Shown here: positions 14,121-51,621 of the stretch, one piece after another
How the letters are laid out: every line of letters begins with the position of its first letter
Position numbering within the stretch: the first letter of the stretch is position 1
Source: Escherichia coli
Lineage (GTDB): Bacteria > Pseudomonadota > Gammaproteobacteria > Enterobacterales > Enterobacteriaceae
DNA length: 64,000 bases
NCBI RefSeq assembly: GCF_024502345.1
Contig: NZ_JALDNN010000001.1
Reading direction: 5' to 3' (one strand)
Notes under the pieces: model-generated
Databases searched by the model: none
What the model was told of the DNA's origin: nothing
What the model saw: the letters and a program-made list of their open reading frames with translations, nothing else
Made by a program: the position numbers and the translations under genes

Positions 14121-14196
14121 TGGCTCCTCTGACTGGACTCGAACCAGTGACATACGGATTAACAGTCCGCCGTTCTACCGACTGAACTACAGAGGA
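14121..14196 (-). tRNA. asnT: tRNA-Asn (GUU)
   Basis: Reverse complement reads TCCTCTGTAGTTCAGTCGGTAGAACGGCGGACTGTTAATCCGTATGTCACTGGTTCGAGTCCAGTCAGAGGAGCCA, the canonical E. coli tRNA-Asn. Confidence 0.95.
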
Positions 14197-15187: not shown

Positions 15188-15277
15188 GGAGAGATGCCGG
15201 AGCGGCTGAACGGACCGGTCTCGAAAACCGGAGTAGGGGCAACTCTACCGGGGGTTCAAATCCCCCTCTCTCCGCCA
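15188..15277 (+). tRNA. serU: tRNA-Ser (CGA)
   Basis: GGAGAGATGCCGGAGCGGCTGAACGGACCGGTCTCGAAAACCGGAGTAGGGGCAACTCTACCGGGGGTTCAAATCCCCCTCTCTCCGCCA: long variable arm with CGA anticodon. Confidence 0.95.
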
Positions 15278-19789: not shown

Positions 19790-20006
19790 GTTTATATCCT
19801 TGTCATGTGAATGAGTTTTGAGGATAGCGAAAAAGCGGCCAGGGTAACCTTACAGCAGCATTACAATTTTGTAATGAACCAGGCTGTTTCTATAACATAT
19901 GATTTATGGCATATTATTTTCATGAAGATTTTACTTATTGAAGATAATCAAAGGACCCAGGAGTGGGTAACGCAGGGGCTTTCCGAAGCGGGTTATGTCA
20001 TTGATG

Positions 20007-21063
20007 GGCTTTGTTGAATAAATCGAACTTTTGCTGAGTTGAAGGATCAGATCACGTATCTTCCCGACAACGCAGACCGTTCCGTGGCAAAGCAAAAGTT
20101 CAAAATCACCAACTGGCCCACCTACAATAAAGCCCTCATCAACCGTGGCTCCATAACTTTCTGGCTGGATGATGAAGCTATTCAGGCCTGGTATGAGTCA
20201 GCAACACCTTCTTCACGAGGCAGACCTCAGCGCTATTCTGACCTTGCCATCACGACTGTGCTGGTCATTAAACGCGTATTCAGGCTGACCCTGCGCGCTG
20301 CGCAGGGCTTTATTGATTCCATTTTTTCTCTGATGAACGTTCCGCTACGCTGCCCGGATTACAGCTGTGTCAGCAGGCGGGCAAAGTCGGTTAATGTCAG
20401 TTTCAAAACGCCCACCCGGGGTGAAATCGCACACCTGGTAATTGATTCCACCGGGCTGAAGGTCTTCGGTGAAGGCGAGTGGAAAGTCAAAAAGCATGGC
20501 CAGGAACGCCGCCGTATCTGGCGTAAGCTGCATCTCGCCGTTGACAGTAAAACACATGAAATCATCTGCGCTGACCTGTCGCTGAACAACGTTACGGACT
20601 CAGAGGCCTTCCCCGGGTTAATCCGGCAAACCCACCGGAAAATCAGGTCAGCCGCCGCCGATGGCGCTTACGATACCCGGCTATGTCACGATGAACTGCG
20701 GCGTAAGAAAATCAGCGCGCTTATCCCTCCCCGAAAAGGTGCGGGTTACTGGCCCGGTGAATATGCAGACCGTAACCGTGCAGTGGCTAATCAGCGAATG
20801 ACCGGGAGTAATGCGCGGTGGAAATGGACAACAGATTACAACCGTCGCTCGATAGCGGAAACGGCGATGTACCGGGTAAAACAGCTGTTCGGGGGTTCAC
20901 TGACACTGCGTGACTACGATGGTCAGGTTGCAGAGGCTATGGCCCTGGTACGAGCGCTGAACAAAATGACGAAAGCAGGTATGCCTGAAAGCGTGCGTAT
21001 TGCCTGAAAACACAACCCGCTACGGGGGAGACTTACCCGAAATCTGATTTATTCAACAAAGCC
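20007..21063 (+). mobile_element. IS903-like element (IS5 family, IS903 group), 1057 bp, copy 1
   Basis: Terminal repeats GGCTTTGTTGAATAAATCG at both ends, a 322-aa transposase, and a 9-bp target-site duplication TCATTGATG (19998-20006 and 21064-21072). Confidence 0.9.
20039..21007 (+). CDS. IS903-group DDE transposase
   Basis: 322-aa ORF filling the element. The 5' DNA matches remembered IS903 sequence (GGCTTTGTTGAATAAATCGAACTTTTGCTGAGTTGAAGGATCAGATCACG...). Confidence 0.85.
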   Translation: MKDQITYLPDNADRSVAKQKFKITNWPTYNKALINRGSITFWLDDEAIQAWYESATPSSRGRPQRYSDLAITTVLVIKRVFRLTLRAAQGFIDSIFSLMNVPLRCPDYSCVSRRAKSVNVSFKTPTRGEIAHLVIDSTGLKVFGEGEWKVKKHGQERRRIWRKLHLAVDSKTHEIICADLSLNNVTDSEAFPGLIRQTHRKIRSAAADGAYDTRLCHDELRRKKISALIPPRKGAGYWPGEYADRNRAVANQRMTGSNARWKWTTDYNRRSIAETAMYRVKQLFGGSLTLRDYDGQVAEAMALVRALNKMTKAGMPESVRIA

Positions 21064-21552
21064 TCATTGATGCCGTTTCTGATGGCAGAGATGGGCTTTA
21101 TCTTGCGCTGAAGGATGATTATGCATTGATCATTCTGGATATTATGCTTCCGGGTATGGATGGCTGGCAGATCTTACAAACGTTAAGAACAGCAAAGCAA
21201 ACCCCTGTTATTTGCCTTACTGCAAGGGATTCTGTCGATGACAGAGTCAGAGGGCTGGACAGTGGAGCAAATGATTATCTGGTAAAACCTTTTTCATTTT
21301 CTGAGTTGCTGGCAAGGGTTCGGGCACAATTAAGGCAACATCACGCTTTGAATTCAACATTAGAAATCAGTGGCTTAAGAATGGACTCTGTAAGTCAAAG
21401 TGTGAGCAGGGACAATATCAGTATTACACTGACGCGCAAGGAGTTTCAGTTACTTTGGCTACTGGCCTCCAGAGCTGGCGAAATTATACCCAGAACGGTT
21501 ATTGCGAGTGAAATTTGGGGAATCAACTTTGATAGTGATACCAATACGGTGG

Positions 21553-22609
21553 GGCTTTGTTGAATAAATCAGATTTCGGGTAAGTCTCCCCCGTAGCGGG
21601 TTGTGTTTTCAGGCAATACGCACGCTTTCAGGCATACCTGCTTTCGTCATTTTGTTCAGCGCTCGTACCAGGGCCATAGCCTCTGCAACCTGACCATCGT
21701 AGTCACGCAGTGTCAGTGAACCCCCGAACAGCTGTTTTACCCGGTACATCGCCGTTTCCGCTATCGAGCGACGGTTGTAATCTGTTGTCCATTTCCACCG
21801 CGCATTACTCCCGGTCATTCGCTGATTAGCCACTGCACGGTTACGGTCTGCATATTCACCGGGCCAGTAACCCGCACCTTTTCGGGGAGGGATAAGCGCG
21901 CTGATTTTCTTACGCCGCAGTTCATCGTGACATAGCCGGGTATCGTAAGCGCCATCGGCGGCGGCTGACCTGATTTTCCGGTGGGTTTGCCGGATTAACC
22001 CGGGGAAGGCCTCTGAGTCCGTAACGTTGTTCAGCGACAGGTCAGCGCAGATGATTTCATGTGTTTTACTGTCAACGGCGAGATGCAGCTTACGCCAGAT
22101 ACGGCGGCGTTCCTGGCCATGCTTTTTGACTTTCCACTCGCCTTCACCGAAGACCTTCAGCCCGGTGGAATCAATTACCAGGTGTGCGATTTCACCCCGG
22201 GTGGGCGTTTTGAAACTGACATTAACCGACTTTGCCCGCCTGCTGACACAGCTGTAATCCGGGCAGCGTAGCGGAACGTTCATCAGAGAAAAAATGGAAT
22301 CAATAAAGCCCTGCGCAGCGCGCAGGGTCAGCCTGAATACGCGTTTAATGACCAGCACAGTCGTGATGGCAAGGTCAGAATAGCGCTGAGGTCTGCCTCG
22401 TGAAGAAGGTGTTGCTGACTCATACCAGGCCTGAATAGCTTCATCATCCAGCCAGAAAGTTATGGAGCCACGGTTGATGAGGGCTTTATTGTAGGTGGGC
22501 CAGTTGGTGATTTTGAACTTTTGCTTTGCCACGGAACGGTCTGCGTTGTCGGGAAGATACGTGATCTGATCCTTCAACTCAGCAAAAGTTCGATTTATTC
22601 AACAAAGCC
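21553..22609 (-). mobile_element. IS903-like element, 1057 bp, copy 2 (inverted relative to copy 1)
   Basis: Same inverted repeats; transposase protein identical to copy 1. Own 9-bp target-site duplication ATACGGTGG (21544-21552 and 22610-22618). Confidence 0.9.
21609..22577 (-). CDS. IS903-group DDE transposase
   Basis: Translation identical to the 20039..21007 ORF. Confidence 0.85.
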
Positions 22610-22724
22610 ATACGGTGGATGTCGCCATTCGCAGGCTCCGCGCAAAAGTTGATGATCCTTTTCCTGAAAAGCTAATCGCCACAATCCGGGGGATGGGCTA
22701 TTCATTCGTAGCGGTAAAAAAATA

Positions 22725-24083
22725 ATGAAAAGATTATCTATAACCGTCCGTTTAACCTTGCTTTTTATATTGCTGCTGTCTGTTGCTGGCGCTGGAATTG
22801 TCTGGACTCTCTATAATGGCCTGGCAAGTGAGTTGAAATGGCGCGATGATACAACACTCATTAACCGGACAGCACAGATCAAGCAGTTGTTAATTGATGG
22901 GGTAAATCCAGATACGTTACCTGTATACTTTAACCGGATGATGGATGTTAGTCAGGATATCTTGATCATTCATGGTGATAGCATCAATAAAATTGTTAAC
23001 CGGACAAATGTCAGTGATGACATGTTAAATAACATACCTGCTAGTGAGACAATCAGCGCAGCTGGCATTTACAGAAGCATTATTAATGATACTGAGATTG
23101 ATGCTTTACGAATTAATATTGATGAAGTTTCGCCATCATTAACGGTTACTGTGGCTAAATTGGCTTCAGCCAGACATAACATGCTTGAACAGTATAAAAT
23201 TAATAGCATTGTAATTTGCATTGTCGCCATTGTACTTTGCTCAGTATTAAGTCCGCTGTTAATCAGAACGGGATTACGAGAGATCAAAAAGTTGAGTGGT
23301 GTAACGGAAGCGCTGAATTATAACGATAGCCGGGAGCCTGTTGAGGTTAGCGCATTACCGAGAGAACTAAAACCTCTTGGGCAGGCGTTGAATAAAATGC
23401 ATCAAGCCTTAGTCAAAGATTTTGAACGCCTAAGTCAATTTGCTGACGATCTCGCTCATGAACTTAGAACGCCCATTAATGCATTACTGGGTCAGAATCA
23501 GGTTACGCTCAGTCAAACCAGAAGTATCGCTGAATATCAAAAAACAATTGCCGGTAACATTGAAGAGTTGGAAAATATTTCGCGGTTAACAGAGAACATA
23601 CTGTTTCTTGCCCGGGCAGATAAAAACAATGTTTTGGTGAAACTGGACTCGCTTTCTCTCAATAAGGAAGTCGAAAATTTGTTGGATTATCTTGAATATC
23701 TTTCAGACGAGAAAGAGATTTTCTTTAAGGTCGAGTGCAATCAGCAAATCTTTGCGGATAAAATTTTACTGCAACGAATGTTATCGAATCTTATTGTTAA
23801 TGCCATTAGATATTCACCAGAAAAATCGCGTATTCATATAACCAGTTTTCTTGATACCAACGGCTATCTTAATATTGATATCGCCAGTCCTGGAACGAAA
23901 ATACATGAGCCTGAAAAACTCTTCCGTAGATTTTGGCGGGGAGATAATTCGCGTCATTCCGTAGGTCAGGGACTTGGTCTTTCTTTAGTCAAAGCGATTG
24001 CCGAATTGCATGGGGGAAGTGCTTCATATCACTATCTCAATAAGCATAATGTGTTCCGAATTACGTTACCGCAAAGAAATTAA
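22725..24083 (+). CDS. hprS: Sensor histidine kinase HprS (YedV)
   Basis: Two transmembrane segments, an H-box (ELRTPINALLG) and an ATPase G-box (GQGLGLSLVKAIAELHGG). Its ATG follows the hprR stop directly. Confidence 0.85.
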   Translation: MKRLSITVRLTLLFILLLSVAGAGIVWTLYNGLASELKWRDDTTLINRTAQIKQLLIDGVNPDTLPVYFNRMMDVSQDILIIHGDSINKIVNRTNVSDDMLNNIPASETISAAGIYRSIINDTEIDALRINIDEVSPSLTVTVAKLASARHNMLEQYKINSIVICIVAIVLCSVLSPLLIRTGLREIKKLSGVTEALNYNDSREPVEVSALPRELKPLGQALNKMHQALVKDFERLSQFADDLAHELRTPINALLGQNQVTLSQTRSIAEYQKTIAGNIEELENISRLTENILFLARADKNNVLVKLDSLSLNKEVENLLDYLEYLSDEKEIFFKVECNQQIFADKILLQRMLSNLIVNAIRYSPEKSRIHITSFLDTNGYLNIDIASPGTKIHEPEKLFRRFWRGDNSRHSVGQGLGLSLVKAIAELHGGSASYHYLNKHNVFRITLPQRN

Positions 24084-25634: not shown

Positions 25635-26750
25635 TTAGAACTGGTAGACGATACCAACTGCAAACTGGTCATCAGCTGCTGCGCCAGTAATGGCGGCGTC
25701 ATCTTTATCCAGCATGTTGAATTTGTATGCAGTATAAACGTTCATGTTCTTATTAAAGTAGTACCAGGTACCAACTTCAATGTAGTTCACACGGTCAGCG
25801 TCAACATATCTATGTCCAGGTACCCCTTTGATATCTTTACCTTTAGAGTACACATAACCTAAGGACGGACGCAGACCAAAGTCGAATTGATACTGAACAA
25901 CCGCTTCAAAGTTCTGGGTTTCATTGATAAGTTGATCACGCATTATTGTATTGCCTTCTCGATCGGCAACACCTGTATCAATAGAACCCGGAGTCATATT
26001 ACGAGTTTCGCCGTACATTACAGCTGCGTAGACATTGTTCGCGTCATACTTTGCAGCCAATGACCACAGTTCAGCATTTGAACCGTTTCCATCGGCAACT
26101 TGATCGTTGGTGCGATCAGATTTGCTATATGCACCAACGATACCAAAACCATTGATGTTATAGTCTACAGACAACGCATAGCCGTCACCATTTTGTTTCT
26201 TAGTGCTACGGTTGCTGTTTTTGCCTTGGTACTGAATCGCAAAATCAAGACCATCAACCAGGCCAAAGAAATCATAGTTACGGTAGGTTGCAACACCGTT
26301 GGTACGACCATTCATGAAGTTGTCAGCGGAAGCCCAGGAATCGCCACCCCATTCAACTAACATATCGGTATAAGCTGCGGCATCATAAGCAACACCGTAG
26401 TTACGGCCATAGTCAAATGATCCTAACTCGTTATATTTCAAACCGGCGAAGGTTAAACGGGTTTTTTCCTGGTTTTCACCTTCGGGCTTGCTGGCGTCGA
26501 GATTGTATTCAAACTGACCAAAACCAGTCAGTTCGCTGGTGATTTGGGTTTCACCTTTAACACCGAAACGAGCATAGGAGGTATCTTCGTTTTCGCTGTT
26601 ATTATCATCAGTATTTGACCAGATGCGTTCGCCAACCATCTTGCCGTAGAAATCAACTTTATTGCCATCTTTATTGTAAATTTCAGCCGCATTTGCTGCG
26701 CCAGCAACTAATAACGCCGGGACCAGCATTGCCAGAACTTTTCTTTTCAT
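25635..26750 (-). CDS. yedS: OmpC/OmpF-family general porin (yedS-like), apparently intact
   Basis: Signal peptide [21 protein letters not shown], the [12 protein letters not shown] start typical of general porins, and a C-terminal aromatic residue (...VGIVYQF). Confidence 0.85.
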
Positions 26751-27379
26751 TATGTATTCCCTTGTGATTATAATCTTCATGAATATATCAATAAGTGCCG
26801 TTATCCAAAAAAAAGCACATTTGGATACTATTCTATGAAGTTCATTTTATTTTAAAGATTACATGTAACAAATGTATTTAAAAGATTTCAAAATGTTTCT
26901 AATCTATTTAATATAATTTAGAATTATGAATTCTAAATATAAATATTCATGAAAATTATAAATGTATATCAATATGTTATGAGTTGAGCGGAAGCATAGG
27001 GGGTATCAATGATTGTTGCGCCAAACGGCTGGTGTGATCACGCGCACATTAATGAAGGCATAAAAAAAAGCCGGCATCATGCCGGCCCAAAAAATATAAA
27101 CAAGACGATAAAAGGCTAATAACGGAGGCATCATGACACAGAAAAATAAAAAGGTATAATTGTATTCAGTGCTAATATATTGATTAAATGAATTAATAAA
27201 GCCGATCTCAAAGATAAATAAAATCGCTCAAAACGATTTTTCCTGTATTCACTGCCGTTGCGCAAAAATTATCTATTTGTTCAAAAAATGAGTGAGTCTT
27301 GACTGGCTCATCCAATGTGGAAAAATGTGACTTTTATCACATAATAGTACTAAGTCTGAATTTTCCGGGTTATCTCAAA

Positions 27380-27682
27380 ATGGAATACGGTTCGACAAAG
27401 ATGGAAGAGAGACTCTCTCGCAGCCCTGGTGGCAAACTGGCTTTGTGGGCTTTCTATACATGGTGTGGCTATTTCGTCTGGGCAATGGCGCGTTACATCT
27501 GGGTGATGAGCCGGATCCCCGATGCCCCCGTGTCGGGATTTGAAAGCGATTTAGGCTCTACCGCGGGAAAGTGGTTAGGGGCACTGGTCGGATTTTTATT
27601 TATGGCTCTGGTCGGGGCATTGTTAGGCAGCATTGCCTGGTACACCCGACCTCGTCCCGCACGTAGCAGACGCTATGAATAA
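27380..27682 (+). CDS. yedR: Small inner-membrane protein YedR
   Basis: About 100 aa with two hydrophobic segments. Position upstream of yedJ matches E. coli; the start codon is uncertain (in-frame ORF begins at 27299). Confidence 0.55.
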   Translation: MEYGSTKMEERLSRSPGGKLALWAFYTWCGYFVWAMARYIWVMSRIPDAPVSGFESDLGSTAGKWLGALVGFLFMALVGALLGSIAWYTRPRPARSRRYE

Positions 27683-27721: not shown

Positions 27722-28417
27722 ATGGACTTACAGCACTGGCAGGCACAGTTCGAAAACTGGTTGAAAAACCATCATCAGCACCAGGACGCGGCCCATGACG
27801 TGTGTCATTTTCGCCGCGTCTGGGCTACGGCACAGAAGCTGGCGGCAGATGACGATGTCGATATGCTGGTGATTTTAACCGCCTGTTATTTTCACGATAT
27901 TGTGAGCCTGGCGAAAAATCATCCGCAAAGGCAGCGTTCTTCAATCCTGGCGGCAGAAGAGACGCGTCGCCTGCTCCGTGAAGAGTTCGAGCAATTTCCG
28001 GCGGAGAAAATCGAGGCCGTTTGTCATGCCATTGCCGCTCACAGTTTCAGCGCGCAAATCGCCCCCTTAACAACGGAAGCTAAAATTGTCCAGGATGCGG
28101 ATCGGCTGGAAGCCCTGGGGGCGATTGGCCTGGCGCGCGTGTTTGCCGTTTCAGGGGCATTGGGCGTGGCGCTGTTTGATGGTGAAGATCCGTTCGCACA
28201 GCATCGCCCGCTTGATGATAAACGCTACGCGCTGGATCATTTCAAGACTAAGTTGCTGAAGCTACCGCAAACCATGCAAACCGCAAGAGGCAAGCAGCTG
28301 GCGCAGCACAACGCGCATTTTTTAGTCGAGTTTATGGCGAAGCTCAGTGCCGAACTGGCGGGGGAGAATGAAGGTGTCGATCACAAGGTGATAGATGCGT
28401 TTTCACCCGCGGGATAA
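27722..28417 (+). CDS. yedJ: HD-domain phosphohydrolase
   Basis: 231 aa with an HD motif (FHDIV...DADRLEALG). Confidence 0.8.
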
Positions 28418-28483
28418 GCGCGTGGCCCTAAATGGCTGTAATTATGTTAACCTGTCGGCCATCTCAGATGGCCGGTTAAATCT

Positions 28484-29902
28484 ATGCAGGAAAATATATC
28501 AGTAACCGATTCATACAGCACCGGGAATGCCGCACAGGCAATGCTGGAGAAACTGCTGCAAATTTATGATGTTAAAACGCTGGTGGCGCAGCTTAATGGT
28601 GTGGGTGAGAATCACTGGAGCGCGGCAATTTTAAAACGTGCGCTGGCGAATGACTCGGCATGGCACCGTTTAAGTGAGAAAGAGTTCGCCCATCTGCAAA
28701 CGTTGTTACCCAAACCACCGGCACATCATCCGCATTATGCGTTTCGCTTTATCGATCTATTTGCCGGAATTGGCGGCATCCGTCGCGGTTTTGAATCGAT
28801 TGGCGGACAATGCGTGTTTACCAGCGAATGGAACAAACATGCGGTACGCACTTATAAAGCCAACCATTATTGCGATCCGGCGACGCATCATTTTAATGAA
28901 GATATCCGCGACATCACCCTCAGCCATAAAGAAGGCGTGAGTGATGAGGCGGCGGCGGAACATATTCGTAAACACATTCCTGAACACGATGTTTTACTGG
29001 CCGGTTTCCCTTGTCAGCCATTTTCGCTGGCTGGCGTATCGAAAAAGAACTCGCTCGGGCGGGCGCACGGTTTTGCCTGCGATACTCAGGGCACGCTGTT
29101 CTTTGATGTGGTGCGCATTATCGACGCGCGTCGTCCGGCGATGTTTGTGCTCGAAAACGTCAAAAACCTGAAAAGCCACGACCAGGGTAAAACGTTCCGC
29201 ATCATCATGCAGACGCTGGACGAACTGGGCTATGACGTGGCTGATGCAGAAGATAACGGGCCGGACGATCCGAAAATCATCGATGGTAAACATTTTCTGC
29301 CGCAGCACCGTGAACGCATCGTGCTGGTGGGTTTTCGTCGCGATCTTAATCTGAAAGCCGATTTTACTCTGCGTGATATCAGCGAATGTTTCCCTGCACA
29401 GCGAGTGACGCTGGCGCAGCTGTTGGACCCGATGGTCGAGGCGAAATATATCCTGACGCCGGTGCTGTGGAAGTACCTCTATCGATATGCGAAAAAACAT
29501 CAGGCGCGCGGTAACGGCTTCGGTTATGGAATGGTTTATCCGAACAATCCGCAAAGCGTCACGCGTACGCTGTCTGCGCGTTATTACAAAGATGGCGCGG
29601 AAATTTTAATCGATCGCGGCTGGGATATGGCCACGGGTGAGAAAGATTTTGACGATCCGCTGAATCAGCAACATCGTCCACGTCGGTTAACGCCTCGGGA
29701 ATGCGCGCGCTTAATGGGTTTTGAAGCGCCGGGAGAAGCGAAATTCCGCATTCCGGTTTCGGACACTCAGGCCTATCGCCAGTTCGGTAACTCGGTGGTC
29801 GTGCCGGTCTTTGCCGCGGTGGCAAAACTGCTTGAGCCAAAAATCAAACAGGCGGTGGCGTTGCGTCAGCAAGAGGCACAACATGGCCGACGTTCACGAT
29901 AA
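28484..29902 (+). CDS. dcm: DNA-cytosine methyltransferase (CCWGG)
   Basis: C5-MTase motifs FAGIGG (motif I), GFPCQPFS (motif IV with catalytic Cys) and ENV. 472 aa as in E. coli Dcm. Confidence 0.95.
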
Positions 29903-30353
29903 GGCCACTCGCAGCAAAAATATGCGCGCGATTGCCACGCGTGATACGGCGATTGAGAAGCGCCTCGCCAGTCTGTTAACCGGGCAGGGCCTGGCGTTTC
30001 GCGTTCAGGACGCCAGTCTGCCCGGTCGCCCGGATTTTGTCGTTGATGAATATCGTTGCGTGATATTTACCCACGGCTGCTTCTGGCACCATCATCACTG
30101 CTATCTGTTTAAAGTGCCTGCGACTCGAACCGAGTTCTGGCTGGAGAAGATAGGTAAAAATGTTGAACGCGATCGCCGCGATATCAGTCGTTTGCAGGAA
30201 CTCGGCTGGCGCGTACTGATTGTCTGGGAGTGTGCATTACGTGGGCGCGAGAAGCTGACGGATGAAGCGCTTACCGAGCGTCTGGAAGAGTGGATCTGCG
30301 GCGAAGGTGCCAGCGCGCAGATCGACACGCAGGGGATTCATTTACTCGCTTGA
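29883..30353 (+). CDS. vsr: Very-short-patch repair endonuclease
   Basis: Begins [28 protein letters not shown]. The start overlaps the dcm 3' end by 20 nt in another frame, the known dcm-vsr arrangement. Confidence 0.9.
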
Positions 30354-31262
30354 TGCGTCCTGAATAACTGGCGCAACTACGGGTTTTGCCGGGAAGAGAT
30401 ATTTTCCCAACGTGACCAGTACCACCGCGAAGACAATTACGCCGAGCGCCAGCCATTCAATCTTCGACAGCGTTTCTCCGCCCAGTCCCGTACCCAGCAA
30501 GACCGCGACCACCGGGTTAACGTAGGCGTAGCTGGTGGCGAGAGCCGGACTGACGTTGCGGATTAAATACATATAAGCGTTAATGGCGATAATCGAACCA
30601 AACAGCGCCAGATAGCCGACCGCAAGGAAGCCTGAAAGGGAAGGGAGTGCCGTCAGTTTTTCACCTGCAATCATCGACGCGATCATTAACACCACGCCTG
30701 CCGCCAGCATCTCAATCGCACCCGCCATCATCCCTACAGGTAAGGTAATGCGCGAGCCATAAACCGAGCCAAACGCCCAGCTAATCGAGCCGATTAAAAT
30801 CAGAATCGCGCCCCACGGATTGCCGCTTAAATTTCCACCGCTATTGAGCATGATGATTCCGGCAAGCCCAATGGCGATACCCACCCATTCCAGTTTGCGC
30901 GTTTTAATGCCAAACAGGCGGCTGAAGCACAGGGTAAAGAGGGGCACGGTTGCAACCACAACGGCGGCGATGCCGGAAGGAACATTTTGATGCTCGGCAA
31001 CCGTCACCATGCCATTACCGACAGCCAGCAATAACAGGCCAATCAGCGCGGCATTGAGCAGCGGACGTAGCGGGGGGAGTTTGTGTCCGCGCAGTAGCAA
31101 AAATGCCAGCAATAAAATACCGGCTGCCAGGAATCGAACGCCCGCCATCATTAACGGAGGCCAGCTTTCCACGCCAATCCGAATGACAAAATAGGTTGAG
31201 CCCCAAATGATATACAACGCAAACAGCGCGCCAAAAAGCGGTAACAACTGGCGGAAACGCAT
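30342..31262 (-). CDS. yedA: EamA/DMT-family amino-acid exporter
   Basis: 306-aa protein with about 10 transmembrane segments in two EamA repeats. Confidence 0.8.
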   Translation of the reverse strand: MRFRQLLPLFGALFALYIIWGSTYFVIRIGVESWPPLMMAGVRFLAAGILLLAFLLLRGHKLPPLRPLLNAALIGLLLLAVGNGMVTVAEHQNVPSGIAAVVVATVPLFTLCFSRLFGIKTRKLEWVGIAIGLAGIIMLNSGGNLSGNPWGAILILIGSISWAFGSVYGSRITLPVGMMAGAIEMLAAGVVLMIASMIAGEKLTALPSLSGFLAVGYLALFGSIIAINAYMYLIRNVSPALATSYAYVNPVVAVLLGTGLGGETLSKIEWLALGVIVFAVVLVTLGKYLFPAKPVVAPVIQDASSE

Positions 31263-35487: not shown

Positions 35488-35574
35488 AACACATCAGATT
35501 TCCTGGTGTAACGAATTTTTTAAGTGCTTCTTGCTTAAGCAAGTTTCATCCCGACCCCCTCAGGGTCGGGATTT
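35488..35574 (+). ncRNA. dsrA: DsrA small regulatory RNA (Hfq-dependent; activates rpoS translation, represses hns)
   Basis: AACACATCAGATTTCCTGGTGTAACGAATTTTTTAAGTGCTTCTTGCTTAAGCAAGTTTCATCCCGACCCCCTCAGGGTCGGGATTT matches the remembered DsrA sequence, including the terminator hairpin and U-tract. Confidence 0.9.
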
Positions 35575-48097: not shown

Positions 48098-48299
48098 GTT
48101 TTGTAACCTGTTGTTAATTACTTCCAATCTCACCGCTTGGGGCATGGATGGGGCAAACTCACTCAATTTCTGGTTTAAAATGGATACCTGATCCTGAAAG
48201 TTTTCTGCCATCCACGATCCGTAAACGCGATAACATGTTTTGTCGGTGATGCTGCCAACTTACTGATTTAGTGTATGATGGTGTTTTTGAGGTGCTCCA

Positions 48300-48575
48300 G
48301 TGGCTTCTGTTTCTATCAGCTGTCCCTCCTGTTCAGCTACTGACGGGGTGGTGCGTAACGGCAAAAGCACCGCCGGACATCAGCGCTATCTCTGCTCTCA
48401 CTGCCGTAAAACATGGCAACTGCAGTTCACTTACACCGCTTCTCAACCCGGTACGCACCAGAAAATCATTGATATGGCCATGAATGGCGTTGGATGCCGG
48501 GCAACCGCCCGCATTATGGGCGTTGGCCTCAACACGATTTTCCGCCATTTAAAAAACTCAGGCCGCAGTCGGTAA
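48300..48575 (+). CDS. insA: IS1 InsA
   Basis: Translation identical to the copy A InsA. Confidence 0.95.
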
Positions 48576-48997
48576 CCTCGCGCATACAGCCGGGCAGTGA
48601 CGTCATCGTCTGCGCGGAAATGGACGAACAGTGGGGATACGTCGGGGCTAAATCGCGCCAGCGCTGGCTGTTTTACGCGTATGACAGGCTCCGGAAGACG
48701 GTTGTTGCGCACGTATTCGGTGAACGCACTATGGCGACGCTGGGGCGTCTTATGAGCCTGCTGTCACCCTTTGACGTGGTGATATGGATGACGGATGGCT
48801 GGCCGCTGTATGAATCCCGCCTGAAGGGAAAGCTGCACGTAATCAGCAAGCGATATACGCAGCGAATTGAGCGGCATAACCTGAATCTGAGGCAGCACCT
48901 GGCACGGCTGGGACGGAAGTCGCTGTCGTTCTCAAAATCGGTGGAGCTGCATGACAAAGTCATCGGGCATTATCTGAACATAAAACACTATCAATAA
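48494..48997 (+). CDS. insB: IS1 InsB'
   Basis: Identical to copy A except for one residue. Confidence 0.9.
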
Positions 48998-49208
48998 GTT
49001 GGAGTCATTACCTTGCGTAAGATAGATGAGACAAACTGAGACGCATAATGGTTTGCAAGGCTCTAATACTTTGATGTTGAGGATGTGATGGGGCATGTAC
49101 GGGGCATAGTACAATGATGTCCATGCTGGTGTAGATAATCTCCAGGCTTATCCGGTGCGCCGTAAAACCCCGTCCTTCAGGGCAGGGATATAAGGCGTGG
49201 TTTTCCAC

Positions 49209-49640
49209 CTAACCAGGTGTTTGCTGTTGTTCAATGTATTGGCGGATGACGGATATTGGCGCACCTCCGCAGCTACTGGCAAAATAGCCAGCACTCCACA
49301 AAACGCCTTTGTAGTAATACCTGACTGCAATATCTGGTCGATCTCGTCGCAGTCACCTACCCGATACGCCTTTGAGGCTGTTTACCAGACTGGATATCGC
49401 CAGTTTGGGAGGATAGTTAATTAACAAATGGACGTGATCTGGTTCGCCATCCATTTCAACCAGTTCAGCTTCAAAATCAGCACATACATTTGAAAAGTAA
49501 GTGCGTAGTTTTTCTGTCGCGTCATGGTCAAAAATCTGACGTCGGTATCTGGTGACAAAGACCAGGTGAACATGCATCAGGAAAACACAATGCCTTCCAC
49601 GCCGGATATCGGTTTCTTTTTTCACAGACCAAAGTATCAT
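49209..49640 (-). pseudogene. tnpA: IS200-type Y1 (HuH) transposase TnpA, interrupted by an in-frame TGA
   Basis: HuH motif (HVHLL) in the first 95 codons. After TGA at 49353-49355 the same frame continues with ...LWSAGYFASSCGGAPISVIRQYIEQQ, the typical TnpA C-terminus. Confidence 0.75.
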
Positions 49641-49647
49641 TTGGCCT

Positions 49648-50856
49648 GTGAAACGACTACAAGCATTTAAATTCCAGTTAAGACCCGGTGGTCAACAGGA
49701 GCGTGAAATGAGGCGCTTCGCAGGCGCATGTCGTTTCGTTTTCAATCGTGCTCTGGCACGTCAGAATGAGAATCATGAGGCCGGTAATAAATACATCCCT
49801 TACGGGAAAATGGCTTCCTGGCTGGTTGAGTGGAAAAATGCCACTGAAACGCAATGGCTTAAAGATGCCCCGTCACAGCCATTGCAACAGTCACTGAAAG
49901 ACCTTGAGCGGGCTTACAAAAACTTCTTCCAGAATCGGGCTGCTTTTCCCCGATTCAAAAAGCGGGGACAGAATGATGTATTCCGCTACCCGCAGGGCGT
50001 TAAGCTCGATCAGGAAAACAGCCGTATTTTTCTGCCGAAACTGGGCTGGATGCGCTACCGGAACAGCCGTCAGGTCACGGGTGTTGTGAAAAATGTCACT
50101 GTCAGCCAGTCCTGCGGTAAGTGGTACATCAGTATTCAGACAGAAAGTGAAGTATCAACTCCGGTTCACCCTTCAGCATCAATGGTCGGGCTGGATGCTG
50201 GCGTGGCTAAACTCGCCACGCTGTCAGATGGCACAGTCTTTGAGCCTGTAAACAGTTTTCAGAAAAACCAGAAGAAGCTGGCGAGACTTCAGCGACAGTT
50301 AAGCCGCAAGGTCAAATTCAGCAACAACTGGCAGAAGCAGAAACGCAAAATACAGCGACTGCATTCCTGTATCGCAAATATCCGCAGGGACTACCTTCAC
50401 AAAGTCACAACGACCGTCAGCAAAAACCACGCAATGATAGTCATTGAGGATTTGAAGGTCAGCAACATGTCAAAGTCAGCAGCGGGTACGGTCAGCCAGC
50501 CGGGGCGCAATGTCCGGGCAAAATCAGGTTTAAACCGTTCGATACTGGATCAGGGCTGGTATGAAATGCGCCGCCAGCTTGAGTACAAGCAGCTCTGGCG
50601 TGGCGGTCAGGTGCTTGCTGTTCCGCCAGCGTACACAAGCCAGCGTTGCGCGTGCTGTGGTCATACAGCGAAAGAAAACCGCCTGTCACAAAGTAAATTC
50701 AGATGCCAGGTATGTGGATATACAGCGAACGCCGATGTAAATGGCGCTCGTAACATTTTAGCGGCGGGGCACGCCGTTCTTGCCTGTGGAGAGATGGTGC
50801 AGTCAGGCCGCCCGTTGAAGCAGGAACCCACCGAAATGATTCAGGCGACAGCCTGA
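49648..50856 (+). CDS. tnpB: TnpB (OrfB) RNA-guided endonuclease, Cas12 ancestor (OMEGA-type)
   Basis: 402 aa with a RuvC-like core and a C-terminal zinc finger (CxxC...CxxC: QRCACCGH...[18 protein letters not shown]). Confidence 0.85.
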
Positions 50857-50895
50857 ACGTAGCAGGGATCCTCGTCCTTCAGGGCGTGGAGGATG

Positions 50896-51621
50896 TCAAC
50901 AAACAGGTTGAATTAACTCCGCGCCCTGGTTTTTGACATTACCTACCGCGCGCGATACCGGGTGCCAGGTGAACTGGTTTGCTGGCACACAGCCGTTGGT
51001 AGCAATTTCTGATGCTTCTTTACCGCCAATCTCTTGCCGCATCCATTCCTGTGCAGCTTCTGGCGACAGAACCAGCGGGCGGCGGTCATGAATGTCTACC
51101 AGACCCTGGTCTGCTGCAGCAGTGACAATTAAAAATCCTTCGGCTTCGTCACCACGCTCAAATGGTGTGCTACCTATCGCGGCCATAAAAATAGGTTGTC
51201 CATCAGCACGATAGATAAAAAAAGGCTGTTTTTTGTCGCCTTCTTTTTTCCACTCAAACCAGCCATCGGCAAAACAGATTGCCCGACCATGTTGCCAGAG
51301 CGGTTTAAACATGCGACTGGTTGCGGCAGTTTCTACGCGGGCGTTAATCAGCGGCGGTTTATCCCACCATCCGGGAGCATATCCCCAGAAAACCGGATCC
51401 AGATGAAGGTGTTCATCACGTTCACTGAGCAGAAGAACTTTGGTTCCCGGCGCGACGTTGTATCTGCCAATGGGTTCGGGATCGTAGGGAATATCGCGTT
51501 CAATATCTTCCGCGAGAAGCGCAAGGTAATCTTCACGCGAGGGAATATCGCGTTCAATATCTTCCGCGAGAAGCGCAAGGTAATCTTCACGCGTTTGGGA
51601 TTGGGCAAAGCGTCCACACAT
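50896..51621 (-). CDS. yedK: SOS-response-associated peptidase (SRAP; abasic-site DNA-protein crosslinking) YedK, with an 18-aa internal duplication
   Basis: Begins MCGRFAQSQTREDYLALLAEDIERDIP. The segment SREDYLALLAEDIERDIP occurs twice in tandem; the remainder matches remembered YedK. Confidence 0.85.
   Translation of the reverse strand: MCGRFAQSQTREDYLALLAEDIERDIPSREDYLALLAEDIERDIPYDPEPIGRYNVAPGTKVLLLSERDEHLHLDPVFWGYAPGWWDKPPLINARVETAATSRMFKPLWQHGRAICFADGWFEWKKEGDKKQPFFIYRADGQPIFMAAIGSTPFERGDEAEGFLIVTAAADQGLVDIHDRRPLVLSPEAAQEWMRQEIGGKEASEIATNGCVPANQFTWHPVSRAVGNVKNQGAELIQPVC
51486..51593. repeat. Perfect 54-bp tandem duplication (two units) inside yedK
   Basis: AGGGAATATCGCGTTCAATATCTTCCGCGAGAAGCGCAAGGTAATCTTCACGCG appears twice back to back; the result stays in frame. 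Confidence 0.9.

Follow-up and report, generated by a model that had tools for sequence, protein, structure and literature searches.

The dcm and vsr genes in the 64-kb stretch of Escherichia coli DNA analyzed here (the window) almost certainly make up the chromosomal E. coli dcm-vsr module in its standard form, with the start of vsr embedded in the 3' end of dcm. By direct reading and in the open reading frame (ORF) listing, the segment shared by the two genes occupies 29883..29902 on the plus strand, is 20 nt long including the dcm stop codon, and has the sequence ATGGCCGACGTTCACGATAA. The overlap is a well-known feature, found here in its commonest form: it was reported for K-12 over 30 years ago, nearly all E. 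coli share it, and the finding matters little beyond annotation quality. The features of the locus are as follows.

27299..27345, plus strand: two overlapping sigma-70-like promoter matches upstream of drpB (yedR), from a consensus scan in which the number of matches was not above that in shuffled sequence
27380..27682, plus strand: drpB (yedR), 100 aa, identical to the K-12 protein by K-12 comparison
27722..28417, plus strand: yedJ, HD-domain phosphohydrolase, 231 aa, full length, from the ORF and K-12 annotation
28484..29902, plus strand: dcm, DNA-cytosine (C5) methyltransferase, 472 aa, 1419 nt, from the ORF, NCBIfam, Pfam and K-12 alignment
29871..29876, plus strand: Shine-Dalgarno-like AAGAGG for vsr within the dcm coding sequence, read directly and the same in K-12
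29883..30353, plus strand: vsr, very-short-patch repair T:G mismatch endonuclease, 156 aa, 471 nt, from family profiles and identity to 1CW0
30342..31262, minus strand: yedA, convergent neighbour, from the ORF and K-12 annotation

An earlier note on this DNA had named the two overlapping genes dcm and vsr, and both identifications were borne out by profile scores far above the curated cut-offs and by a junction identical to that of K-12; no result spoke against them. Dcm matched NCBIfam NF007772 (DNA cytosine methylase) at 951.4 bits, with a curated cut-off of 710 bits, over residues 1-469 of 472, i.e., a full-length match; its Pfam matches were PF00145 (260 bits) and the Dcm-type N-terminal domain PF18284 (72 bits). 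The motifs that serve catalysis and AdoMet binding in m5C methyltransferases are FxGxG (I), PCQ with its nucleophilic Cys (IV), ENV (VI), QxRxR (VIII) and GN(S/A)V (X). All of them were found in Dcm, as FAGIG at residue 93, PCQ at 176 (catalytic Cys177), ENV at 224, QHRER at 274 and GNSV at 435. Compared to K-12, dcm differed at 19 nt, 18 of them synonymous and one non-synonymous (Q163K), with 471 of 472 amino acids identical. The substituted residue, 163, is not part of any conserved catalytic motif. At least 1000 public contigs carried exactly this Dcm, K163 included, under the label E. coli DNA-cytosine methyltransferase; Q163K is a common natural allele. Because of the 471/472 identity to K-12 Dcm, we infer that the enzyme methylates the inner C of CCWGG in the present strain.

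The assignment of Vsr is equally direct. The protein scored 182.7 bits with TIGR00632 (cut-off, 97.85), a full-length match, and 134 bits with PF03852 (cut-off, 27), and it was 100% identical over 155 residues to PDB 1CW0, the E. coli Vsr bound to DNA, and to K-12 Vsr, the 12 nt differences between the present vsr and that of K-12 being all synonymous. Residues D51, T63, H64, C66, F67, W68, H69, H71, C73, W86 and C117 were all found; among these, we take Asp51, His64 and His69 to be catalytic, Cys66, His71, Cys73 and Cys117 to be zinc ligands, and Phe67, Trp68 and Trp86 to be intercalating residues, as in the 1CW0 and 1VSR structures. Since its sequence is identical to that of the characterised enzyme, Vsr would be expected to nick 5' of the T at the T:G mismatch in CTWGG/CCWGG. 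The synonymous to non-synonymous counts relative to K-12, 18:1 for dcm and 12:0 for vsr, indicate purifying selection on both genes.

With Vsr matching 1CW0 at 100%, Dcm altered at Q163K only and all motifs in place, the further claim that the module is intact held at the sequence level, and an intact dcm-vsr module is supported as far as the two coding sequences predict. A strain with standard Dcm and Vsr should have CCWGG-methylated DNA, which would bear on cloning, on the use of Dcm-sensitive enzymes and on 5mC signals in nanopore or bisulfite data; the presence of Vsr should also hold C-to-T hotspots at CCWGG in check.

Closer reading of the overlap placed the vsr ATG at 29883-29885 and the dcm TAA at 29900-29902, so that the shared segment takes in six dcm sense codons and the TAA stop. 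The vsr frame is +1 relative to dcm (29883 - 28484 = 1399, which leaves 1 modulo 3), and the dcm TAA begins 17 nt downstream of the A of the vsr ATG. According to the earlier note, the vsr ATG was located 20 nt upstream of the dcm stop and in another frame; the different frame is correct and the coordinates given correspond exactly to the overlap, but the distance is 17 nt, 20 nt being the length of the overlap. The AAGAGG element is separated from the vsr ATG by 6 nt. The vsr start codon thus lies inside the 3' end of dcm, on the same strand and with vsr directly downstream, as in the enterobacterial dcm-vsr overlapping module, and the 81 nt at the junction (29842-29922) show zero differences from K-12 MG1655.

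The same organization is found throughout the species. In K-12 MG1655, dcm (b1961) and vsr (b1960) have the same order and neighbours (drpB-yedJ-dcm-vsr with convergent yedA), the same lengths, the same 20-nt overlap in the +1 frame and the same Vsr; the present strain differs from it by the 19 and 12 nt changes in dcm and vsr, by Dcm Q163K, by a G-to-T change at -7 of dcm and by a slightly different C-terminus of YedJ. The yedJ ORF has the K-12 length, and its BLAST alignment ends 4 nt early from terminal mismatches only. Of 5426 complete E. coli genomes, 5367 carried the 2-kb locus, always annotated as dcm, vsr, yedA and yedJ, and 5319 (about 98%) carried the 81-nt junction, 3274 of them without a mismatch. 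In the most divergent junction variants sampled (n = 2; 96-97.5% identity), RefSeq annotation keeps the 20-nt overlap. The G-to-T change relative to K-12, at 28477, is 7 nt upstream of the dcm ATG and within a weak GGTGA ribosome-binding region; 96 nt across the yedJ-dcm intergenic region were identical in 1006 complete E. coli genomes, and this allele, too, is common among E. coli. None of the differences from K-12 at the locus is unusual for the species.

We then compared the module with those of other genera, using a Salmonella contig and a Klebsiella replicon found by tblastn of Vsr against plasmid and chromid records. In the chromosomal dcm-vsr pairs of Salmonella enterica and Klebsiella pneumoniae, the overlap is exactly 20 nt, and the ATG and TAA fall in the same alignment columns as in E. 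coli. Dcm and Vsr are 83% and 86.5% identical, respectively, between Salmonella and the present strain, and 78% and 77% identical between Klebsiella and the present strain; Dcm is 476 aa long in Salmonella and 466 aa in Klebsiella, whose Vsr has 164 aa and whose dcm-vsr pair has yedJ, yedA and yedI as neighbours, as in E. coli. The 27 residues at the N-terminus of Vsr are identical in E. coli, Salmonella and Klebsiella, with the initial MADVHDK invariant, and it is the GAT-AAR codons of this heptapeptide that create the dcm TAA. Two substitutions within the overlap among the three genera are silent for Vsr and alter the tail of Dcm (HGRRSR, DGGRSR and DGGCSR), and the 25 nt before the vsr ATG, which code for Dcm only, are far more variable across the three genera. 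Because changes in the overlap are silent in Vsr and the Dcm-only 25 nt are more variable, the N-terminus of Vsr is constrained and the tail of Dcm is not. The purine-rich ribosome-binding element upstream of vsr is less conserved in Salmonella and Klebsiella. As the junction is identical to that of K-12, widespread in E. coli and kept in Salmonella and Klebsiella, the dcm/vsr overlap is no chance arrangement.

An overlap whose length stays fixed in three genera as the residues of the Dcm tail vary permits a stronger reading, which we regard as rather improbable: the exact geometry, with the AUG 17 nt before the stop, and not just the Vsr coding sequence, may be under selection in the Enterobacteriaceae because ribosomes terminate and reinitiate there in a way that keeps Vsr low relative to Dcm. 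The Dcm tail would then be a free spacer, with no other function than to bring ribosomes across the vsr start. Three genera are too few to separate such selection from simple conservation of the Vsr N-terminus.

Plasmid-borne type II restriction-modification pairs provide a more distant comparison. In Aeromonas media pE31B, a Thauera humireducens plasmid and Agrobacterium salinitolerans pAtCFBP5507a, an m5C-methylase gene is followed directly by a vsr homologue that overlaps it and has the same orientation; these overlaps span only 1, 4 and 8 nt, and the Vsr proteins are 41-48% identical. These pairs carry a restriction endonuclease gene, whereas E. coli Dcm is an orphan methylase, and they share with dcm-vsr the logic that repair of deaminated 5mC goes with the methylase. 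A vsr start inside the methylase gene is a recurrent design, and the 20-nt version is the enterobacterial one.

With regard to transcription, yedJ lies directly upstream of dcm with a gap of 66 nt, and the 3' ends of yedA and vsr overlap by 12 nt (30342-30353), as in K-12. In the consensus scan, neither a promoter for vsr alone nor a clear one for dcm stood out from background, and no sigma-70-like site lay inside dcm. It is possible that the promoter matches at 27299..27345 mark the start of an extended drpB-yedJ-dcm-vsr transcript. SMRT-Cappable-seq of K-12 places yedR (drpB), yedJ, dcm and vsr on one operon (PMC6131387), and dcm and vsr have been described as forming an operon (PMC4924334; PMC12907096); all four genes are intact in the present strain. 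Across the window as a whole, an Rfam scan matched only DsrA, rseX and two tRNAs, and no family at the junction.

It has been established that Dcm methylates the inner C of CCWGG, that deamination of the product gives T:G, and that Vsr nicks by the T and starts very-short-patch repair (PMC2715241; PMC11741368). In the present strain, 5-methylcytosine made by Dcm would accordingly be expected to deaminate to a T:G mismatch, with Vsr nicking 5' of the T and repair restoring the C. From the literature and from the gene order we infer that dcm and vsr are on one transcript, probably drpB-yedJ-dcm-vsr. A ribosome that completes dcm would cross the vsr start codon and stop 17 nt further on, and this would make Vsr synthesis dependent on Dcm translation, so that the repair enzyme would be made whenever the mutagenic methylase is made.

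Such translational coupling of vsr to dcm is the most likely reading of the overlap, and we consider it probable on the basis of the literature. In the passage of the ER2796 genome paper that cites Dar & Bhagwat 1993, dcm is stated to overlap vsr partially and the dcm-6 nonsense mutation at codon 45 to abolish vsr activity as well (PMC4444293). Our full-text search of the literature on translational coupling of vsr and dcm found no paper. Dar and Bhagwat in 1993 reportedly observed a common promoter and no fusion protein, and are said to have concluded that efficient Vsr synthesis requires upstream dcm translation. There is precedent in the E. coli trpE-trpD and trpB-trpA pairs, in which the downstream start is at or before the upstream stop and downstream expression is linked to upstream translation. 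Coupled overlaps of the trp type are typically 1-4 nt (ATGA or TGATG), compared to 20 nt in dcm-vsr; unlike the trp pairs, coupling of dcm and vsr would need a ribosome back-step of 17 nt or a site that is kept accessible.

The strongest competing explanation, which we regard as unlikely, is that the overlap reflects compact gene packing and that vsr is translated independently from its own AAGAGG; by the same reading, loss of Vsr in dcm nonsense mutants would be due to Rho polarity or mRNA destabilisation. This is favoured by the strong Shine-Dalgarno match with its 6-nt spacing, and dcm-6, at codon 45, is a very early nonsense mutation, of the type most prone to polarity. It is also in keeping with the finding of no significant local RNA structure that would need unwinding: the single-sequence fold of the junction RNA (29820-29950) was not more stable than that of shuffled sequences (z = -0.88), and the consensus fold of E. 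coli, Salmonella and Klebsiella at the junction had no covariation support (covariation term, +0.5). Given these two results, nothing points computationally to a vsr ribosome-binding site that is hidden until dcm translation opens it; with respect to coupling itself, RNA folding at the junction is evidence neither for nor against. Macintyre et al. in 1999 reportedly found that Vsr and Dcm levels diverge with growth phase, which speaks against strict 1:1 coupling. Independent initiation is at odds, however, with the conclusion that Dar and Bhagwat are said to have reached, with conservation of the 20-nt geometry in three genera while the tail of Dcm drifts, and with the recurrence of overlapping or abutting methylase-vsr junctions in unrelated systems.

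A different concern is that the module may be intact in sequence and yet functionally silent or impaired in this strain, with CCWGG un- or under-methylated, the candidate causes being the G-to-T change at 28477, Q163K or altered transcription. We consider this very unlikely. The strain does depart from K-12 at two such positions, -7 of dcm and Dcm residue 163, and a sequence by itself is no proof of expression. Against this, both variants are common natural alleles by the genome and contig counts above, residue 163 is outside the catalytic motifs, the substitutions are strongly synonymous, and Dcm methylation is reported to be conserved among E. coli, as Dcm itself is in E. coli and related genera (PMC9210283).

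Least credible of all, and hardly to be entertained, is that Vsr is wholly or partly a Dcm-Vsr fusion made by +1 ribosomal frameshifting in the overlap and not by initiation at 29883: the vsr reading frame does stay open back to a TTG at 29721 in the mechanical ORF listing, such that a shift at any of the last 54 codons of dcm would lead into Vsr, but vsr has a canonical ATG and a Shine-Dalgarno element, alignments to the family profiles begin at residue 1 or 2 when the protein is counted from the ATG, the crystallised 1CW0 protein begins at Ala2, ATGGCCGACGTTCACGATAA contains no evident slippery or frameshift-stimulating motif, and a fusion was reportedly excluded by Dar and Bhagwat.

We also examined the window for an oligonucleotide footprint of methylation and repair. 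CTWGG and CCWAG were depleted, with 17 and 9 sites, respectively, i.e., 26 in the window compared to about 125 expected for each (about 249 in total), and the observed-to-expected ratio of CTTGG/CCAAG under the Markov model was 0.49. Scarcity of CTAG has other causes in many bacteria. For CCWGG, 145 sites were counted in the window, with about 124 expected from composition; the maximal-order Markov test gave no over-representation, with a ratio of 0.73 (below 1) owing to the high abundance of the tetramers CCAG and CTGG. The clear signal is depletion of CTWGG/CCWAG only. This bias has long been known in E. coli and is attributed to very-short-patch repair; the skew is a record of the species' past rather than a measure of what the enzymes do in the present strain.

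The intact module had been set in contrast to many IS-damaged genes nearby, a description that proved overstated. Six IS copies do make this 64-kb window IS-rich, but the only genes that they disrupt are yeeJ and hprR, and a single deletion (yedL/yedN) goes with them. The copies are placed as follows.

3861-4628: IS1, with a deletion of ~800 bp at the 3' end of yeeJ and at yeeL
6357-7691: IS2-like element of the IS3 family, in yeeJ
20007-21063 and 21553-22609: two inverted IS903B copies in hprR, each with a 9-bp target duplication
about 48.25-49.0 kb: second IS1
49353-50856: IS200/IS605 element, where K-12 has yedL-yedN-intG

The window runs colinear with, and inverted relative to, the segment of K-12 between ~1.998 and 2.0565 Mb. 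Out of 54 K-12 protein orthologues compared, 47 passed a strict test for full length and no stop, and only yeeJ and hprR were IS-interrupted. Four of the seven failures were due to details of the comparison and not to damage: msrP and yedJ failed by terminal alignment mismatches only, tcyL was cut by the window end, and fliC had its usual variable middle. yedK was full length with an in-frame duplication. Neither yedL nor tcyN had a match in the window, yedL being missing and tcyN lying beyond the window end. A Shigella origin, as might be suggested by the IS load, was considered and rejected: because all flagellar genes compared, except the variable fliC, are full length, this is not a decayed region of the Shigella type, and the locus has 97-99.8% identity to E. 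coli genomes. The IS copy closest to dcm ends at 22609, about 5.9 kb upstream of the gene.

Seven nucleotides upstream of the dcm ATG, at position 28477, the G of K-12 is replaced by T (GGTGAAATCT to GGTTAAATCT), a change that falls within the weak ribosome-binding region of dcm. Because the 96-nt stretch containing this T is found in identical copies in 1,006 complete E. coli genomes, the G-to-T change is a common allele. At the other end of the dcm-vsr pair, vsr and the convergent gene yedA share their 3' ends as follows.

30342-30353, 3' overlap of vsr (+ strand) and yedA (- strand), 12 nt

The overlap is the same in K-12, whereas the corresponding overlap in Klebsiella is 26 nt. When the 90%-identity protein cluster containing Dcm was inspected, its members were found to include a 610-aa Klebsiella UvrC (P0003); this membership seems to be an artefact of the clustering or of the look-up rather than biology.

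Oligonucleotide counts were compared with those expected from base composition over the whole window. CTWGG and CCWAG together occur at 26 sites against approximately 249 expected, while CCWGG occurs at 145 sites against approximately 124 expected. This strong skew fits the footprint already known at species level and ascribed to very-short-patch repair, and it also fits general CTAG avoidance.

Rfam models identified four RNA genes in the window, with the Hfq-binding small RNA rseX located directly upstream of drpB, yedJ, and dcm on the opposite strand, and DsrA lying farther along.

14124-14196, - strand, tRNA
15188-15274, + strand, tRNA
27063-27152, - strand, rseX
35488-35574, + strand, DsrA

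A full-length open reading frame for an OmpF/OmpC/PhoE-like porin (381 aa) is present at 25635-26780 on the - strand, whereas K-12 carries only the yedS pseudogene at this position. Since the protein scores under the equivalog cut-offs of all three named porins, OmpF, OmpC, and PhoE, it is a distinct porin of the YedS type.

The response-regulator gene hprR is in three pieces (region 19922-22725), cut through by two IS903B copies facing opposite directions.

20007-21063, IS903B copy 1, with its transposase open reading frame at 20039-21007 (+ strand)
21553-22609, IS903B copy 2, with its transposase open reading frame at 21609-22577 (- strand)

Each copy is accompanied by its own 9-bp target duplication, and a 489-bp hprR fragment remains between them in a composite-transposon-like layout. 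As hprS (22725-24083), encoding the partner kinase, is intact, the split of hprR leaves it as an orphan kinase gene.

Several lesions were also found in the adhesin gene yeeJ (within 3861-13884), including two insertion elements.

3861-4628, IS1, with approximately 800 bp deleted, so that yeeJ lacks its 3' end and yeeL is partly lost
6357-7691, IS2-like element within yeeJ

The open reading frames of the latter fall under the NCBIfam IS2 cut-offs, so the element is a relative of IS2 and not IS2 proper. The yeeJ reading frame is broken somewhere within 11563-11791, and an additional repeat block of approximately 0.9 kb that K-12 lacks is present at 9707-10601.

In place of the yedL gene, yedN pseudogene, and intG remnant of K-12, the counterpart region here (48235-50899) contains one copy of IS1 and, after it, an element of the IS200/IS605 family; the 64-kb window lacks yedL. 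The tnpA of this element is truncated, its 95 aa matching positions 2-84 of a 126-position profile; the TnpB homologue of the element is full length.

49648-50856, homologue of the RNA-guided nuclease TnpB, 402 aa
50896-51621, - strand, yedK, SRAP/HMCES-type abasic-site protein

Inside yedK, a perfect 54-bp tandem duplication (51486-51593; 2.0 copies, 100% match) adds 18 in-frame residues close to the N-terminus, the protein being 241 aa here versus 222 aa in K-12; Cys2 is still present.

In fliC (57834-59846), no K-12 sequence matches the middle (approximately 58361-59573), and identity to K-12 in the conserved ends is just 89-92%, so the flagellar H antigen of this strain differs from that of K-12. 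The remaining fli genes included in the comparison all have their full length.
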